A DNA stretch of 64,000 nt from a virus (Duplodnaviria > Caudoviricetes): positions 64,001 to 128,000 of the IMG/VR virus record IMGVR_UViG_3300028588_000015. One strand, 5' to 3'. Shown piece after piece: positions 11,502 to 39,146 of this stretch. Both the position numbers and the translations under genes were made by a program. How positions within the stretch are numbered: position 1 is the first letter of the stretch; each line of letters opens with the position of its first letter. Under the pieces are notes generated by a model. That model saw only the letters and a list, made by a program, of their open reading frames with translations. It was not told where the DNA came from and searched no databases.

Positions 11502-14135
11502 ATGACCATCAAGACTGACCGCGTAACCTCCAATGAGTTGCGCAAAATTCCCACCCAGAAAGGGCAAGCCGAACACCTTGCCCAAGTGTTCGGTAACAGC
11601 CGTGTCTTTGTTATCCGCCAAGATACTTCTCCAACCGCCAAGTTTCCGATGCTGACTGGCGTCGAGAAAATCAACATCACCAACACGGGCGCCCTCGAAA
11701 TTAAAGCGGGCGCAGTATCGAACTTCGGCGTGCTGGCCACTGTCAACAAGTTTACCGCATTCGACGTCAGTGTCGGTAAAAGTGTGTTGCGTGTCTCGGG
11801 CAATGGCCGCTTTTATCAAGGCACGATTGGCACCACGCCCGATTGTGACTTTGTGGTGCCATTCAAGAACTTCGACCCAACCAACGGTTTGGCGTTTGAC
11901 GAAAGCGCTACACTCAGTGCTTACATGTACCGACCTTCAGGTACCGGTACACCGGCGCCTGATCGTACCGACGACATGGCGTACTCAGTCGAAATCTACA
12001 ACCACAGTCAAGGCGGTAAGGTCACACTTGACTGCACACTGACGATCGACACACGCGATGAAAACGTCGTGTTCGAAGACAAGGATCAAGCCCGTAACAT
12101 CGGCGACACCGCCATGTACCGCACATCGCAGGATGTGCAGTGGGGCAAGGTCGGCGTAGGGGCTACGCTGCTCATTTCTGACAAAAGCAACAGCGAGTCG
12201 GGTTTGGCGCCCTTGCAAGAACTCATTATCAATTTCGCCCGCAATGGTGCTTGGGTGTCCTACCCATTCACCACCACGTACCTGCGCAACCTGATGACCA
12301 TGACCTTGCCGCCGTTCAAGGCTATTTTGCGCAATCGGCGTGGTGAAATTCTCAACATCTTCCAGATGCACGGTGGCGAGGCCATTAACGATATGGCGTT
12401 GTTTTCGGGTAATCTTGCCCACGGCGGCCGTACCGAAGTGCGCCCCCTTCAGCCGCGTTTCAATTGCGCAATGGCTTTGTTCTGGGAAAGCGATCGGCCG
12501 GCACTGAATGACATGTACGACACGTACATGCCTGGGTTGGATCAATTCCGTGAATCGATGTGCAAAAACCAGTCGAGTTTTACGGAAACTGAACCATTGA
12601 TCACCGGTGGTTATGGCGGTAACTCGCTCAATGGCTCGAACCACATGTACTATGCAGGCCGTTGGCCAGAAGCCAATGTTTACAAACTAATCAATGACCC
12701 GTTCCTGGATGATTTCATGAACTCCAACGGTAGCTCAGCCTACCGCGCCGGTTGGATTAAAGGGTACGATGGCTCTGAACCTGGTGCGTATGCCGGCAGC
12801 AACTGGTACACGTCCCCTGGCGGTCCGCGTCCAGACCGATCGGTGTACCCATCGGTACTGGCCCTGTGGTTGGACAACCTCAATGGTGTACGCACACAAG
12901 ACAATGTCCCCTACAAGGACATGGCGCATGGTTTCTATCGTGGACTGTATAACCACAGCAACCATTTCATGAATAACGCCAGTACCATGGAAGGCATCAA
13001 CAAGAACGATTTGTTGTATGACCGCGTCACGGCTGAAAATACCTACTACGGCAACGATCCGCGTTCAATCGGGGTATCGTTCAATGGCGACCAGCGCGAT
13101 GGCACCGGTTCCTGGAATATGGACATCGATGGCGACATGATCATGTCCGGTTGGGCCCGCGATCCACTGCACGATCACGCACAGCGCGGTATGTTTGGTA
13201 TGCATGTCCGTAGTCCGGCATATGCACTCTGGGGGCGCTTTGACACCATGAGCGCCATGATGCTGCACCAGTTCCCTGAAACGGGTGTGCGGGGTCAATA
13301 CATGATCCGTACCATGGCTTGGCAGTGGTTCCAAATGCTGGTGGCGTGGAAGAATGCTACCAAACATGCCCGTGGTTTCTCGCGTGCTGAAATGGAAGCG
13401 TATTGGGTGCGGATGCTCGAAGGGGTGTACAAATACCATTACAAACCCGTTCACATCGACATGGAAGACTCGGGTTATGCACGCGGTGTTCGTAACCTCG
13501 GTATTGCCCTGCGTCAGCATGACAATGGCTATGGTTGGGCTGACCCGGGCGGTAAGCTCGGTTATTACATGGCATGGACGCTGCAACTCATGAAGCAAAC
13601 CGGCCTCTGGCATACCTTGATCGCCAAGAACGAGCGTTGCTCGCTGGCTTTGCATGGGCTGGTGCGCGACATGGACACCCATTGCTTCGGTCTGATGACG
13701 CAAGCCAATGGCGCTGTCCCTGGCAATTACCTGTACATCCCTGGTTGGCCGTCATTGGATGTGATTCCCGTGAGCTGGCCGGCATGGTATGCAGAGCACC
13801 TCAAAGACCCGGTGGGTGACAATGACTGGATCTACCGAAGCGGGTATAACGACGATGGTAGTGAGTACCACCGCCGCTACGAACCGAACCAAGATATTGC
13901 GTGGAACCACTTCGAGGCATATGCACGGATGCGCAAAAACTTCTTCCCGGAAATCGTGCACCCGCTGATGGACCAAGCGATCTCGGAATTCGATCGTTAC
14001 CGTGCAGATGTTACCGGTCGCGTCAACGCGGCTGCCACACCCACCGAGAAGCGAAACATGGACTACCCGTTCCGCTCAGCCGGGATTTGCCCGGTCAAGC
14101 CACCGGCACCCGGTAAGTTACGCATGCAGGCATAG
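11502..14135 (+). CDS. large hypothetical protein of the tail cassette (877 aa)
   Basis: RBS AAGGA, ATG at 11502. Beta-rich N half, aromatic-rich helical C half. No family recognised with confidence. Confidence 0.6.
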   Translation: MTIKTDRVTSNELRKIPTQKGQAEHLAQVFGNSRVFVIRQDTSPTAKFPMLTGVEKINITNTGALEIKAGAVSNFGVLATVNKFTAFDVSVGKSVLRVSGNGRFYQGTIGTTPDCDFVVPFKNFDPTNGLAFDESATLSAYMYRPSGTGTPAPDRTDDMAYSVEIYNHSQGGKVTLDCTLTIDTRDENVVFEDKDQARNIGDTAMYRTSQDVQWGKVGVGATLLISDKSNSESGLAPLQELIINFARNGAWVSYPFTTTYLRNLMTMTLPPFKAILRNRRGEILNIFQMHGGEAINDMALFSGNLAHGGRTEVRPLQPRFNCAMALFWESDRPALNDMYDTYMPGLDQFRESMCKNQSSFTETEPLITGGYGGNSLNGSNHMYYAGRWPEANVYKLINDPFLDDFMNSNGSSAYRAGWIKGYDGSEPGAYAGSNWYTSPGGPRPDRSVYPSVLALWLDNLNGVRTQDNVPYKDMAHGFYRGLYNHSNHFMNNASTMEGINKNDLLYDRVTAENTYYGNDPRSIGVSFNGDQRDGTGSWNMDIDGDMIMSGWARDPLHDHAQRGMFGMHVRSPAYALWGRFDTMSAMMLHQFPETGVRGQYMIRTMAWQWFQMLVAWKNATKHARGFSRAEMEAYWVRMLEGVYKYHYKPVHIDMEDSGYARGVRNLGIALRQHDNGYGWADPGGKLGYYMAWTLQLMKQTGLWHTLIAKNERCSLALHGLVRDMDTHCFGLMTQANGAVPGNYLYIPGWPSLDVIPVSWPAWYAEHLKDPVGDNDWIYRSGYNDDGSEYHRRYEPNQDIAWNHFEAYARMRKNFFPEIVHPLMDQAISEFDRYRADVTGRVNAAATPTEKRNMDYPFRSAGICPVKPPAPGKLRMQA

Positions 14136-28868: not shown

Positions 28869-30491
28869 ATGAATACCATGCACCAGTACTACGACCTCAT
28901 CCGGAAAGTCATCACCGAAGGTAACATCCGTACCGACCGCACCAACACCGGTACCATTTCGTTATTCGGCCCGCAAATCGAATTCAACCTCGCCGACGGC
29001 TTCCCGCTCGACCCCAGCCGCCAAGTGTTCCTGCGCGGCGATCTGGAAGAACTCTTCTGGATGCTGCGTGGCTCGACTAACAATAACGAACTGACGGCCA
29101 AGAACGTCAACATCTGGACCCAGTGGGCAATCCGCCAAGAGCACGTAGAATACACCCAAGCCGAGCGTCTTGCCATGCTTCGCGAGAAGTTCATGCAAGA
29201 CACCGGCGATGGCGCCGCTGGCCAGACGGTTTATTTGTCAACGATGGCCGAAGCGATCGATATCGACAAGATGCTCGACGGTCACGGTATTCCGAAGGAA
29301 AAATACGCCAAGGAGCAGTTGGCCATGCTCTTCCAGAAGCTAGTGGAAAAGAACGGTTCCAAGGAAATTGCTCTATCCCACTACGACGCGATGTTCAAAG
29401 GCGGTGTGAGCCAAGAGCAGTTCAACACCATCATGAAGAACTACGGCATCCCCGGCGCCCCGAAGATCGGCGCCCTCGGTCCCATTTATGGCGAGCAGTG
29501 GTGTAAGTGGCCTGACCCAGAGAAAGACGAGACCAAGTTCTTTTCAGTACCAGAGCGCGTCCAGATGGCCGAAGATTATCTGGCCAGCGGCGCGGCTGAA
29601 AAGTTCACGCAGGCAGACTTGGACAGCGTCAAGGACCAGTACCAACAATACCTCGATGAGAAAAGTAATGGCGCCACTGGCTCGACGATGGAAGAACTGC
29701 TGCACGATGACATCGATACTTGGGGTATCCCCAACAAGGTCACGCGACGTACCACCCACAACCAAATCGCCAAGCTGATCGAGGACCTAAAGAAGCGACC
29801 CAATTCGCGGCGTCACATTGTCTCGACCTGGAACGTACCCTACCTGCCGGACGAATCGCTGTCGCCCCAGCAGAACATCATGCGTGGTAAAATGGCACTG
29901 GCGCCATGTCACACCCTCTTCCAGTATTACGTGGAAGGACGCGCGTCCATGGAAATGTGTAAGGAACTTACGACAGAGCAACTGGACGAGTACATGCAAT
30001 ATTGCAGAGAAAACGAGCTAGAAGTTCATGCTTTCCAATCGGATCAGCGCGGGTTTATCGACGATCCGAAGTACTGGGAAGTAATTTTCAATTTCGACAA
30101 GAAGAAGTTGGTCAATGACTGGTTCAAAGAACGTGGCATCAAAACCCAGAAGCTGTCCTGCAAGTTGTACCAGCGTTCGTGCGATCTCCTCGTCGGTGGC
30201 GCCTTTAACATTGCCGCCTATGCTGCACAAACCATGATGGTCGCCCAGTGCGTCGACATGGTCCCGGGCCGGTTCATCCATACATTCGGCGACGTCCACA
30301 TCTACAAGGACCACATGTTGCCTAACTCGGATGGCGACTCTGTGTTCACGCAGTTGGAACGTGAAGTGCGCGCGATGCCGGTCCTCTTGATTAACCCGGA
30401 AGTGAAAGACATCTTCGCCTTCAAGTACGAAGACTTCAAGTTGACCGATTATAACCCCCACAAAAAGATCAACTACAAAGTCGCGGTTTAA
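28869..30491 (+). CDS. thyA: thymidylate synthase with large helical insertions (540 aa)
   Basis: RTDRTNTGT, EELFW.LRG, NIW.QWA, GPIYG.QW, SRRHIVSTWN, catalytic LAPCH, LYQRSCDL..G..FNIAAY, FGDVHIYKDH. Confidence 0.95.
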   Translation: MNTMHQYYDLIRKVITEGNIRTDRTNTGTISLFGPQIEFNLADGFPLDPSRQVFLRGDLEELFWMLRGSTNNNELTAKNVNIWTQWAIRQEHVEYTQAERLAMLREKFMQDTGDGAAGQTVYLSTMAEAIDIDKMLDGHGIPKEKYAKEQLAMLFQKLVEKNGSKEIALSHYDAMFKGGVSQEQFNTIMKNYGIPGAPKIGALGPIYGEQWCKWPDPEKDETKFFSVPERVQMAEDYLASGAAEKFTQADLDSVKDQYQQYLDEKSNGATGSTMEELLHDDIDTWGIPNKVTRRTTHNQIAKLIEDLKKRPNSRRHIVSTWNVPYLPDESLSPQQNIMRGKMALAPCHTLFQYYVEGRASMEMCKELTTEQLDEYMQYCRENELEVHAFQSDQRGFIDDPKYWEVIFNFDKKKLVNDWFKERGIKTQKLSCKLYQRSCDLLVGGAFNIAAYAAQTMMVAQCVDMVPGRFIHTFGDVHIYKDHMLPNSDGDSVFTQLEREVRAMPVLLINPEVKDIFAFKYEDFKLTDYNPHKKINYKVAV

Positions 30492-32854: not shown

Positions 32855-32912
32855 TGCATTTTTTACTAGGTTGCTACACTTCTATGTGCACCTTTATCCA
32901 CTAGGAACTATC

Positions 32913-36321: not shown

Positions 36322-37080
36322 ATGGAAAAGAAGAAGGTTCCTTTGCTGTTGTTCTCGGGCGGTCTCGATTCGTCCTACATGTTGCAAACGTATCTGGAAA
36401 AGGGTGACGTTGAAACACTTTACGTCAAAGGAGCACAGCATCCAGACAAAGTCACGCTCGAATTGCGGGCTCGCACGCGCATCATTGCCGAACTGGAAAA
36501 GAAGACCGGCAATAGGGTTCTCAAGGACCGTGTCGTTAATCTCCACGATTTGTTCGAAGGCGACATGCCTGACCGTGCTTTTGTTCAACCCATCACCTGG
36601 ATCACCGGTGCGCTCCAAGTATCGAACGGAGAGAAGCATGCTCACCTTGCTATTGGCTATGTCAGTGGCGACCAAGTTTCTTCCGAAATTCCGTTCATAC
36701 ACGCTGCATGGGAAAACATACAGCACTTCACGAAGCAAAATACTATCCCGGTTGAGTTTCCATTGAAGGTCACCACCAAGCTGATGATCCTCGATAACAT
36801 CTGGCCTGAAGTGGTTCAGCACGTCTGGGTCTGTGAAATGCCCGAGCGGCGCGGTGACCGTATCGACGGCGTGGGTAGTAAAAAAAGACCAAAATCATGC
36901 GAATGGTGCGCAGCATGTCTTACACAGGCTGGCACCTTGGCGATGTGGAAACAGAAACACGGTGAGCCATACAGCCATAGATTCATCGCGCGGCTGCGTT
37001 GCAATAAGTTAAGAGAAGAAGATGCGTTAAAACGAGTACTACTGAAAGAAACTATCCCTCCAAGAGAAAATTCAAGATGA
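36322..37080 (+). CDS. QueC-like PP-loop ATP pyrophosphatase
   Basis: LLFSGGLDSS PP-loop, IGY..GD, FPL...K..I, and a four-Cys Zn site (WVC...C..C..C), in QueC order. Confidence 0.8.
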   Translation: MEKKKVPLLLFSGGLDSSYMLQTYLEKGDVETLYVKGAQHPDKVTLELRARTRIIAELEKKTGNRVLKDRVVNLHDLFEGDMPDRAFVQPITWITGALQVSNGEKHAHLAIGYVSGDQVSSEIPFIHAAWENIQHFTKQNTIPVEFPLKVTTKLMILDNIWPEVVQHVWVCEMPERRGDRIDGVGSKKRPKSCEWCAACLTQAGTLAMWKQKHGEPYSHRFIARLRCNKLREEDALKRVLLKETIPPRENSR

Positions 37081-37404: not shown

Positions 37405-37818
37405 ATGGACGATTCCTTGATTGTGCGTGAAATCTTCGCCCACCGCGTCGACGATCACGTGTCGCCGCTCAAGATCGAGTGCCTTGGGGTTGCGGCACAG
37501 GGCGGCGCACAGAACTATTACCGGATCACCGGTTTTAATTACGCAGCCGACGGCAAAACGGTCAATGCCCTGCCAATCTCTTTTCAGATTGGCAACCCCG
37601 AGGTGTTGGGCGTCAACGGTGTGACCATGGAAGCACTGCTGGCGGTGGTCATTGACCGCCTGTCAGGATTGCAAAAAGGGATGTACCCGTGTAGCGAAAA
37701 CAATATGGCTTTGGGGCATCTCGAAGCCAGCATGACTTACCTGCACGCACGGTCGCGCCGTATTCAACAGACGCTGTTTGAAATTGAAGCCATGCCTGAA
37801 CTGCCAGAAAAGAATTGA
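37405..37818 (+). CDS. Tad1-like anti-defence sponge protein
   Basis: GGA..Y.I...I.FQ.G....NGV..E.LL..V.DRL...Q.G.Y...EN..AL.HLE.....L..R matches the recalled Tad1 pattern (GPGGAYHEY..., [52 protein letters not shown]). Confidence 0.75.
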   Translation: MDDSLIVREIFAHRVDDHVSPLKIECLGVAAQGGAQNYYRITGFNYAADGKTVNALPISFQIGNPEVLGVNGVTMEALLAVVIDRLSGLQKGMYPCSENNMALGHLEASMTYLHARSRRIQQTLFEIEAMPELPEKN

Positions 37819-37924
37819 TGTAAATTATTACATTAATTTCCCTATGGTATGTTTAGTACTGGGTAACTCATTTTCCCCAACCTGAATAAAGGGTAACCGA
37901 TGAACAAACTCGAATAACCAAAAA

Positions 37925-38528
37925 CTATCTGATGATCCGTGAAAACCGGAGCCACGTGCTGAGCACTGTGCGAGGTGTCACCGTATCCAGCGGTGTGGTA
38001 CGTGGTTGGGATAATACCCCATGAAACCCGAGGGCTCCAGAAGTTGTTCTGGGATTGCTTCTGCCGGTTGACAGACCCTTCACGGAGTCTAACAACTGAG
38101 TGTGTGTGCCTCTGGTCATAGAACGTGACGTTTTTGGGTTACGGTACGTCGCATTTTCCTTTCCTAGGAAAAGATACCATGCAAGCTTCCAACTTGTGAA
38201 AACCGTACGGCCAAACTTTCTGGGTGGAACCAGTCATGTTTGGCAAGTTGTCCACATTCCCGTGGCGGCCCTCCCTTGGGCAGCGGACAGCGGGAAAGAG
38301 CATATTACCCCGGCCCGTGTGGAGTGTGGGTGGTTGGTGCCGCGGCCTGCGGCCAGTGCTCTGTGTGCAGCCTGTAACACCTTTCTCGTGTTGGCTGAAA
38401 ACAGCCGGCCTCTTTGGAACCCGCCAAAGATGATTCGCTCGATATTGGGATACCGACGGGATGTCGGGGTCGGGGGAATGCGTGTGAGGGTGTTACGGGA
38501 TGTACAGTGTTTTCATGGATCGTGATAG
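37925..38528 (+). ncRNA. candidate large ornate non-coding RNA (~600 nt)
   Basis: End-pairing helix 37932-37946/38509-38523 (15 bp, two GU), an 8-bp long-range pseudoknot 37961-68/38354-61, and more than 12 further stems. No credible long ORF; own terminator. Confidence 0.7.
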
Positions 38529-38545
38529 GGATGTCCGATCTTGAC

Positions 38546-38572
38546 AGTCACCCTTCGGGGTGACTTTTTTCC
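38546..38572 (+). terminator. intrinsic terminator closing the candidate ncRNA
   Basis: AGTCACCC-TTCG-GGGTGACT-TTTTT. Confidence 0.9.
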
Positions 38573-38594
38573 GACTACTAAAGAAAACGATACC

Positions 38595-39146
38595 ATGAAA
38601 CATTTACGATTGGCATTGGAGCATAACTCACCATTAGCTAACATGGAAGAGGTGAGGGCGGAACCAGAAGGAAATATGTGGTTTCGACACACCTCGCCGT
38701 ATGCGCTGGCTGAATTGAAACCGTTGAGTTACGATGAATTGGAAAAGGTTCGGCCCGATTACGATGTTGAGGCACGTAAAAGGACAGAAAAGAAATACCA
38801 TCGCTTGGCACACACGAATCCCGACACGAGTTTTCTTTACGCCACGATGGTGGGATTTCATCAGATGGAAGATGTGCTGTCTTACCCAGGTTACACATAT
38901 TTCTTCAAACTGGAACTATGGCAATTGCCCGAATGTATCTTTGATGTCGTCGATCAAAAGAAGTGGATGGAGCCGACCAAAGGTATTGCTGGATACACGC
39001 TGGCACGAGACATTTGGACGCGGCATCGGCGAGAATTTAAACCGTACGAGGAAGAAGGTCTCGGCACTATTGAACCACGTATCGAGCTTATCATTCCGTA
39101 TTCGGTAAAACCCAAACTCTATGTCCCGCAAGAAGAAGACCGTTAG
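38595..39146 (+). CDS. hypothetical protein, possible virion component
   Basis: ATG at 38595 (the track start lies in the terminator); N-terminal LRLALE contains an A-x-E motif. Confidence 0.65.
   Translation: MKHLRLALEHNSPLANMEEVRAEPEGNMWFRHTSPYALAELKPLSYDELEKVRPDYDVEARKRTEKKYHRLAHTNPDTSFLYATMVGFHQMEDVLSYPGYTYFFKLELWQLPECIFDVVDQKKWMEPTKGIAGYTLARDIWTRHRREFKPYEEEGLGTIEPRIELIIPYSVKPKLYVPQEEDR

Follow-up and report, generated by a model that had tools for sequence, protein, structure and literature searches.

Herein, we describe a large structured non-coding RNA gene of a jumbo phage, located on the + strand at positions 37924-38571 of a 64,000-nt stretch of viral DNA (the window), which comprises bases 64001-128000 of an IMG/VR viral contig of 225,547 bp. 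The presence of a conserved structured RNA gene of approximately 650 nt at this locus is almost certain. The RNA consists of three domains supported by covariation, and the first of these has the type-I hammerhead sequence and topology, with two extra hairpins inserted. In the present study, the conservation of the RNA, its non-coding nature, its secondary structure, its strand and the hammerhead-like arrangement are all regarded as established. Taken as a whole, the results are probably best explained by a transcription unit that would process itself through the hammerhead-like domain and leave a stable RNA of approximately 450 nt. A preliminary description, made from the letters of the sequence, had proposed that a large structured RNA or ribozyme, either new or strongly diverged, lies at this site; the hammerhead-like core was missed at that stage.

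The RNA gene occupies a 776-nt gap (37819-38594) between the stop codon of the open reading frame (ORF) 37405-37818 and the ATG at 38595. No ordinary gene is present in this gap, as had been noted; its ORFs are all short or odd, and the longest is a GTG-led frame of 141 amino acids (38100-38525). The assignment to a jumbo phage was also borne out, since large proteins of the contig match PHROGs of phiKZ-type jumbo phages (internal head proteins, phrog_3245, phrog_3289), and the nearest GenBank phage is Burkholderia phage FLC9, with 43.5% amino acid identity in one conserved virion protein. Two IMG/VR contigs found through the conserved virion protein (G001 and G002, 73-75% amino acid identity) and a third related contig found through a neighbouring gene (G003) each carry a non-coding gap of approximately 760-820 nt at the syntenic place, 3' of a QueC-like gene. 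Nucleotide similarity between these gaps and that of the window is patchy (nhmmer E = 3.7e-70 for G003). A metagenome fragment, L032, carries the 3' half of the RNA and was the one real fragment among seven loci from a pattern scan of metagenomes; the other six were chance matches.

Several lines of evidence show that this RNA is folded. The single-sequence minimum free energy (MFE) is -272.2 kcal/mol (z = -4.29 against dinucleotide shuffles, and z = -2.75 for the minus strand), and RNAalifold on three, four and five sequences gave consistent helices with 66, 63 and 56 pairs, respectively, carrying double-sided changes. The four-sequence consensus reached -134.8 kcal/mol, compared with -30.8 +/- 5.3 in column-shuffled alignments (z = -19.7), and contained 65 compensatory pairs, whereas column shuffles averaged 22 and never exceeded 31. 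The reverse-strand consensus was far weaker, at only -85.2, and therefore the RNA strand is +. When eight sequences were placed on the model of the central domain, 87.4% of the cells were paired, compared with 69.7% in shuffles (reached by 0 of 500); pairing fell to 33-43% when the partners were slid, and both sides had changed in 20 of 30 pairs. Covariation in homologues and a folding energy better than that of shuffled controls had been set beforehand as tests, and both were found, the former in abundance. Searches of Rfam 15 were blank at gathering score over the entire window, gave only noise at E <= 10 in the region, and returned nothing for any family member, homologue loci included. The ROOL, GOLLD, OLE, HEARO and raiA models had no gathering-score match in the window and, at E <= 10, none in the region or in homologous loci; group I and II introns, RNase P RNA and tmRNA likewise gave no Rfam match. 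Homologue covariation, shuffle controls and the blank Rfam searches support the earlier reading of a new or strongly diverged structured RNA that falls in no known class.

The family extends beyond these close relatives. A covariance model of the 3' domain built from the window clade only (R1, 97-149 bits within the clade) matched an unannotated 507-nt gap of FLC9 (E = 0.04) and an unannotated 848-nt gap of Xanthomonas phage RTH11 (E = 0.006), and the same unannotated locus was reached in Xanthomonas phage LucasX by blastn from RTH11. An independent model of the central domain (R2) matched the same gaps in all three phages, upstream of the R1 match, on the same strand and collinear with it; motifs common to the three copies are visible by eye. 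A pattern search of IMG/VR for the core and stem II added L068, L069, L070, L071, L073 and L074. The pairs L068/L073 and L070/L071 are FLC9-like contigs, three of them of approximately 310 kb and L068 a 61-kb fragment, and L069 and L074 come from contigs of 272 kb and 243 kb. A broadened model (R3) gave collinear matches in five of these added members (E = 3e-7 to 4e-6) and E = 0.026 in L069; with R2 and R3 together, the central domain has collinear matches in FLC9, RTH11, LucasX and L068-L073. A sequence-only nhmmer profile misses FLC9, RTH11 and LucasX, and thus structure-aware models are needed. No match for the region or the surrounding 16 kb was obtained by blastn against GenBank phages, and locus searches with single proteins (the two flanking genes) returned nothing. 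Among the candidates set aside were 10 of 12 IMG/VR loci with the exact 16-mer CTGATGATCCGTGAAA, which were chance matches, as were L067 and most pattern matches in genome contigs; R2 matches in RSL2, Xoo-sp14 and off-locus in LucasX were false, being coding sequence or lacking every motif. R3 found nothing in phiKZ, SL2, KpGz_1, RSF1, RP31, Xoo-sp14 and RSL2, which under the strict filters used is weak evidence of absence. The RNA was found in one branch of the phiKZ-like jumbo phages. Literature searches located no paper on this RNA, and no curated family was found for it.

The 5' domain was compared with the published type-I hammerhead consensus (PMC3088659). The core strand C3-U4-G5-A6-N7-G8-A9 lies directly 3' of a stem I strand; G12-A13-A14 is followed by a stem III closed by A15.1-U16.1 in all members but L072; and one unpaired base that is not G (H17), C38117 in the window, stands between stem III and stem I. 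The complete arrangement was detected by script in eleven sequences of approximately six lineages, namely the window, G001, G002, G003, FLC9 and six IMG/VR members, among which stems I, II and III all covary. Stem I reads CUAU/AUAG, CUAC/GUAG, GCUCU/AGAGC, GGUA/UACC or GCUGU/ACAGC depending on the lineage, and stem II reads UCCG/CGGA, CCCG/CGGG or GCCG/CGGC under a loop that is constantly 7 nt long (U-G/U-N-A-A-G/A-Y). Stem III includes sub-hairpins at 38040-44/38057-61 and 38065-70/38093-98, with 4 + 0 + 6 compensatory pairs over the stem III domain, and is reduced to a hairpin of 20-23 nt in FLC9-type members. H17 is a single unpaired base in all eleven sequences (L072 excluded: C, U, U, A, C, A, A, C, C, A, U). 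The site triplet found in the window recurs in L076 and L084; elsewhere it is CUU, GUA, CUC, CUA or AUU, and in L072 it is ACC, with C at position 17. The same module also occurs in free-standing form, at approximately 75-110 nt and without the large 3' RNA, in L072, L076 and L084. The order of its parts there is stem I, CUGAUGA, GCCG-UGCAAGU-CGGC, GGGU-loop-GCCCA, GAAA, stem III and GUC. An ORF appears to begin directly after the L072 module.

Several observations weigh against reading this domain as an active hammerhead. Stem II abuts A9, but it is not continuous from A9 to G12: 72 nt (P3, P4 and linkers) separate its 3' end from G12 in the window, and 19-113 nt across members, with a single linker base between P4 and GAAA. 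We know of no hammerhead described with such an insertion between position 11.1 and G12. The Rfam models Hammerhead_1, Hammerhead_3, Hammerhead_II, HH9 and HH10 were blank at E <= 10 in the window and 12 related loci. L072 has G-C at 15.1-16.1, and RTH11 and LucasX have GUGAUGA, with C3 replaced by G; these two sequences were too few for a fold of their 5' domain. The descriptor by itself is loose, with 0.4 chance matches per shuffled genome, and a second match in the genome (minus strand, approximately 49.2-49.4 kb) lacks P2 and P4 and was discarded as chance. In addition, the covariation statistics are not of R-scape grade because the family has few independent lineages, and the role of the 3' RNA is a guess. 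The blank Rfam hammerhead models, the deviation of L072 and the loose descriptor would suit a conserved structured non-coding RNA in which the hammerhead-like junction is purely architectural, a five-way junction containing tandem G.A pairs, and which acts whole, at approximately 650-720 nt, without cleaving. The branched stem II region, unlike that of known hammerheads, and the retention of UGAUGA and the P2 loop without C3 in RTH11 and LucasX would be natural under such an explanation, which we nevertheless consider rather unlikely, though it is the strongest of the alternatives. All the hammerhead nucleotides needed for catalysis are invariant in very different contexts while the flanking stems covary; G never occupies position 17, three members have the classic GUC, and the module also stands free, as phage hammerheads do. 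The hammerhead reading draws its weight from conservation at orthologous sites and not from the descriptor alone. With linkers of zero or one base around P2, P3 and P4, the helices could arrange as a stacked four-way junction, in which stem II might stay stacked on the core.

We hypothesize that the RNA self-cleaves through its hammerhead-like domain, which the sequence comparisons make probable. The domain would cut the transcript after C38117, so that a 3' RNA of approximately 450 nt (38118-38571) would be detached from the leader or, in FLC9, from the upstream mRNA. The released RNA would start with a 5'-OH, end in the terminator hairpin, and contain the central and 3' domains; with these ends, it should be stable. 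The FLC9 copy starts immediately 3' of the upstream gene gp133, and a processing ribozyme would make sense in that position. The carrier phages are phiKZ-like jumbo phages and presumably nucleus-forming, and our best guess is that the released RNA may serve as a stable protein-binding or scaffold RNA during infection. In its fullest form, the proposal is of an undescribed class of large phage RNA, with an active branched hammerhead (a four- or five-way junction with conserved P2 and P4) that is also found free-standing, at approximately 75-110 nt, on archaeal-binned contigs, and with a released RNA of approximately 450 nt that has a dedicated role in infection, e.g. as a stable scaffold or decoy. 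This full form is offered tentatively, its likelihood falling somewhat short of even.

The window from approximately 37846 to 38571 (+) appears to constitute an independent transcription unit, with a promoter-like box, a putative start site and an intrinsic terminator. The 225 kb genome contains 5 copies of the motif TT[TA]TTAC-N8-18-TATG, compared with 1.1 expected, and at least 3 of the other four occurrences precede + strand ORFs. In the late promoters of phiKZ, a TATG overlaps the start site (PMC7598289), and the promoter-like box would fit these published features of jumbo-phage promoters. G001 and G002 retain the ATG, TAA, length and position of a 5-codon mini-ORF in the leader but not its peptide, and in G003 the whole leader stretch is deleted; thus, the leader is probably dispensable. 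The UUCG terminator pointed out earlier (38546-38565 plus the T-run) is kept in homologues with compensatory changes. The form TTTTTTAC-N10-16-TATG of the promoter-like motif was also seen upstream of + strand ORFs at G000:C1 13205, 17753 and 96860 (+), the last being window position 32860; untranslated stretches of approximately 400 and 220 nt follow the sites at 13205 and 17753.

Other explanations of the locus were weighed against an RNA gene. A long cis-acting leader, i.e. a riboswitch or attenuator for the gene at 38595, would be in keeping with a + strand gene downstream of the RNA, with the small conserved upstream mini-ORF, and with GAUG/CAUC and P3 as alternative pairings. However, the conserved intrinsic terminator closes the RNA, the mini-ORF is deleted in G003, and the distant members stand in gene contexts unlike that of the window. 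The gene 3' of the RNA also varies, encoding 183 amino acids in the window, being a gene of another kind with 124-125 amino acids in G001 and G002, and an ORF of 361 amino acids in G003. Because the downstream gene differs and an extra 137-amino-acid gene is present upstream in the window, the RNA is better regarded as a conserved unit than as the leader of one gene, and the leader explanation is very improbable. The same can be said of a group I or II mobile intron in remnant or ORF-less form, or of some other mobile RNA element inserted here. Introns are carried by phiKZ-like phages, the size is comparable and the gene neighbourhood varies, but the Rfam intron models are blank even at E <= 10, no host gene is split (each flanking gene is complete, and the flanks vary from phage to phage), and the RNA has its own terminator and keeps the same locus in four genomes.

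The least credible explanation, to which we attach almost no likelihood, is a decayed or unusual protein gene, whether the 141-amino-acid GTG ORF on the + strand, a minus-strand ORF or a recoded gene. In each of the four phages, the minus strand does contain stop-free stretches of 116-172 amino acids, but such long frames fit the low T content of that strand. Pairwise substitutions show no three-base periodicity (p = 0.58-0.98), compared with p <= 2e-5 in the adjacent QueC-like gene at equal divergence, and of the 58 internal gap runs, 49 have a length not divisible by 3. Six-frame comparison of the relatives produced short matches along the conserved blocks in every frame, with similarity equal across frames and below nucleotide identity, and revealed no conserved ORF. 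Conservation of the 141-amino-acid frame had been named beforehand, with protein-like substitutions, among the results that would overturn a non-coding reading; the frame is not conserved, its substitutions have no codon pattern, and it has no PHROG match, and the non-coding reading stands.

The comparison with relatives also sorted the helices proposed in the preliminary description, all of which were located in the window where they had been placed. The RNA gene and many of the stems stood, while the end helix and the long-range pseudoknot were specific to the window, and the relatives give no support to the labels 'end-paired' and 'pseudoknotted'. The 15-bp terminal helix 37932-46/38509-23 is present in the single-sequence MFE structure of the window, where its duplex energy of -28.6 kcal/mol is reached by 0.7% of shuffles, but it is missing from the relatives, in which 16-92% of shuffles attain the observed energy; in each of them, the 3' tail has a local hairpin of differing sequence. 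Its extension, CTAT with ATAG at 38525-28, is not conserved; what is conserved is the pairing of CUAU with AUAG at 38118-21. The GAGCACTG/CAGTGCTC pseudoknot fails in the same way: the 5' half lies in the variable insert of P3, and the GCUCU of the 3' half pairs locally with AGAGC at 38297-301. In contrast, the stems AGCCACGTGC/GTACGTGGTT, TTTTCCT/AGGAAAA, GCCAAAC/GTTTGGC with CTGG/CCAG, TCTTTGG/CCAAAGA, and GTAACACC/GGTGTTAC, the last as part of the long helix that closes the 3' domain, are kept in homologues with compensatory changes, and CCGAC/GTCGG is kept weakly. CAACTTG/CAAGTTG is specific to the window, as is CCAGAA/TTCTGG, which is broken in G001 and G003 and in whose place GAAG/CUUC (38040-44/38057-61) is kept. 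The GTGAAAACC repeat is present in the window, but the relatives share only AAANCCG. A UUCCA/UGGAA loop-loop contact considered for the central domain was dropped, the UGG being already paired in its own hairpin.

The 5' domain resembles the type-I hammerhead in the order of stem I, CUGAUGA, stem II, GAAA, a stem III beginning with A15.1-U16.1, a non-G base and stem I again, in the open end in stem I, in its covarying stems, in its non-coding location in phages, and in the GUC of the window, L076 and L084. It differs from it in the insertion of two conserved hairpins, or a single one in the smallest modules, ahead of G12 and after stem II, which gives a four- or five-way junction, in a stem I of just 4-5 bp, in the failure of Rfam models to score it, and in being the 5' third of an RNA of approximately 650 nt, with an activity that is predicted only. 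Hammerheads are common in intergenic regions of phages, and very weak stems II are tolerated (PMC3088659). As in discontinuous or embedded hammerheads acting on longer transcripts, such as those beside prophage genes (PMC3088659), the module is placed where a cut would split an upstream from a downstream transcript, the FLC9 copy standing directly after gp133; unlike there, the downstream product is a conserved structured non-coding RNA and not an mRNA. With GOLLD, ROOL, OLE, HEARO and raiA, the RNA shares a length of several hundred nt, multiple domains, many covarying helices and invariant single-stranded patches, and many copies of GOLLD and ROOL are phage-borne, as is the window RNA. The L074 member lies approximately 360 nt from a tRNA gene, a further likeness to these large RNAs; this gene (L074:2394-2475, +; Rfam, 39.9 bits), upstream of the RNA member, has a long insert in the anticodon region. 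In contrast to the five classes, the window RNA has no sequence or structure match in Rfam 15 and carries a ribozyme-like domain, and its carriers here are phiKZ-like jumbo phages whose known hosts are proteobacteria.

The number of known large structured RNAs is very small and, to our knowledge, includes none from a phiKZ-like jumbo phage. Should the 5' domain cleave, the accepted hammerhead architecture would be widened, a whole sub-class would have been missed by current covariance models, and the RNA would exemplify, in nature, the maturation of a large non-coding RNA by a ribozyme. If it does not, the hammerhead core would have been strikingly reused as a structural junction. There are three cultured carriers, FLC9, RTH11 and LucasX, in whose records the locus is unannotated, and bench testing is therefore possible now. 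For phiKZ, a non-coding RNA candidate of approximately 100 nt has been reported (PMC8545117), and non-coding RNAs receive one sentence in a 2026 review (PMC13282480).

Table. Features of the RNA gene, of free-standing modules and of GenBank loci with a family member (window positions unless another record is named)
Feature	Position	Strand	Description
Promoter-like element	37825-37851	+	AT-rich TTATTAC box, then TATGGTATG (two TATG motifs); conserved in G001, G002 and G003
5' leader	37852-37923	+	5-codon mini-ORF, ATG 37900 to TAA 37917, behind Shine-Dalgarno-like AAAGGG (37888-93)
5' domain	37924-38122	+	Multi-helix junction with type-I hammerhead sequence and topology; two extra hairpins before GAAA
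Stem I, 5' strand	37924-37928	+	A-CUAU; pairs with 38118-38122; 5 pairs, 2 compensatory
CUGAUGA	37929-37935	+	Hammerhead C3-A9; identical in window, G001-G003, FLC9, L068-L074, L076 and L084
Stem II hairpin (P2)	37936-37950	+	4 bp, 7-nt loop UGAAAAC
P3 helix	37951-38006	+	37951-59 with 37998-38006 around an insert of variable length; 5 compensatory pairs (three-sequence fold)
P4 hairpin	38007-38021	+	UGGG...CCCA directly 5' of GAAA; in all members including minimal modules, as GGGU-loop-GCCCA
GAAA	38023-38026	+	Hammerhead G12 A13 A14 A15.1; invariant except L072 (GAAG)
Stem III domain	38026-38116	+	12-bp helix 38026-37/38104-16, opening with A38026-U38116
Predicted self-cleavage site	38117-38118	+	GUC 38115-17; putative cut after C38117
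Stem I, 3' strand	38118-38122	+	AUAG-A; from consensus fold
Central domain	38133-38256	+	Helix UUACGG/CCGUA (38137-45/38202-09) around two hairpins; hairpin 38210-14/38240-44; then conserved AAGUUGU(A/C)C
Linker hairpins	38257-38362	+	38274-94; helix AGAGC/GCUCU (38297-301/38358-62) around hairpins 38305-33 and 38338-54
3' domain	38364-38506	+	22-bp helix 38364-86/38484-506 closing a branched region; 8 + 6 compensatory pairs
Invariant GAACCCGC hairpin in 3' domain	38409-17/38424-32	+	
3' tail	38507-38545	+	Local hairpin possible, or 15-bp helix with 37932-46 in this phage only
Intrinsic terminator	38546-38571	+	8-bp stem, UUCG loop, T-run; conserved, 3 compensatory pairs
L084 module	L084:7925-8000	+	Contig binned with a Bathyarchaeia genome; approximately 75 nt, GUC
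L076 module	L076:1251-1370	+	Contig binned with a Thaumarchaeota genome; GUC
L072 module	L072:4290-4393	-	37-kb viral contig; G-C at 15.1-16.1
FLC9 member	LC667451.1 137441-137947		Unannotated stretch
RTH11 member	OQ790161.1 98422-99269		Unannotated stretch
LucasX member	MW825358.1 174170-174976		Unannotated stretch

Some minor observations concern the surroundings of the RNA. The QueC-like gene, of the 7-deazaguanine pathway (window 36322-37080, +), lies two to three genes 5' of the RNA in the window, G001 and G002, and no link between this gene and the RNA was detected. The 137-amino-acid gene (phrog_2428; window 37405-37818, +) stands between a conserved 108-amino-acid gene and the RNA in this phage only, being absent from G001 and G002; its sole detected relative lies within FLC9 gp131, two genes downstream of the RNA, with 41.5% identity over 118 amino acids. 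No conserved protein partner near the RNA was found, as only this gene has a relative near the FLC9 copy and it is missing from G001 and G002. An association of the RNA with tRNA genes was rejected, ARAGORN having detected no tRNA or tmRNA in the window or the genome. Farther upstream, a thymidylate synthase ORF of 540 amino acids (window 28869-30491, +) has its Pfam and PHROG profiles interrupted by an insertion of approximately 200-260 amino acids with no Pfam domain, which could be an intein or another inserted element.

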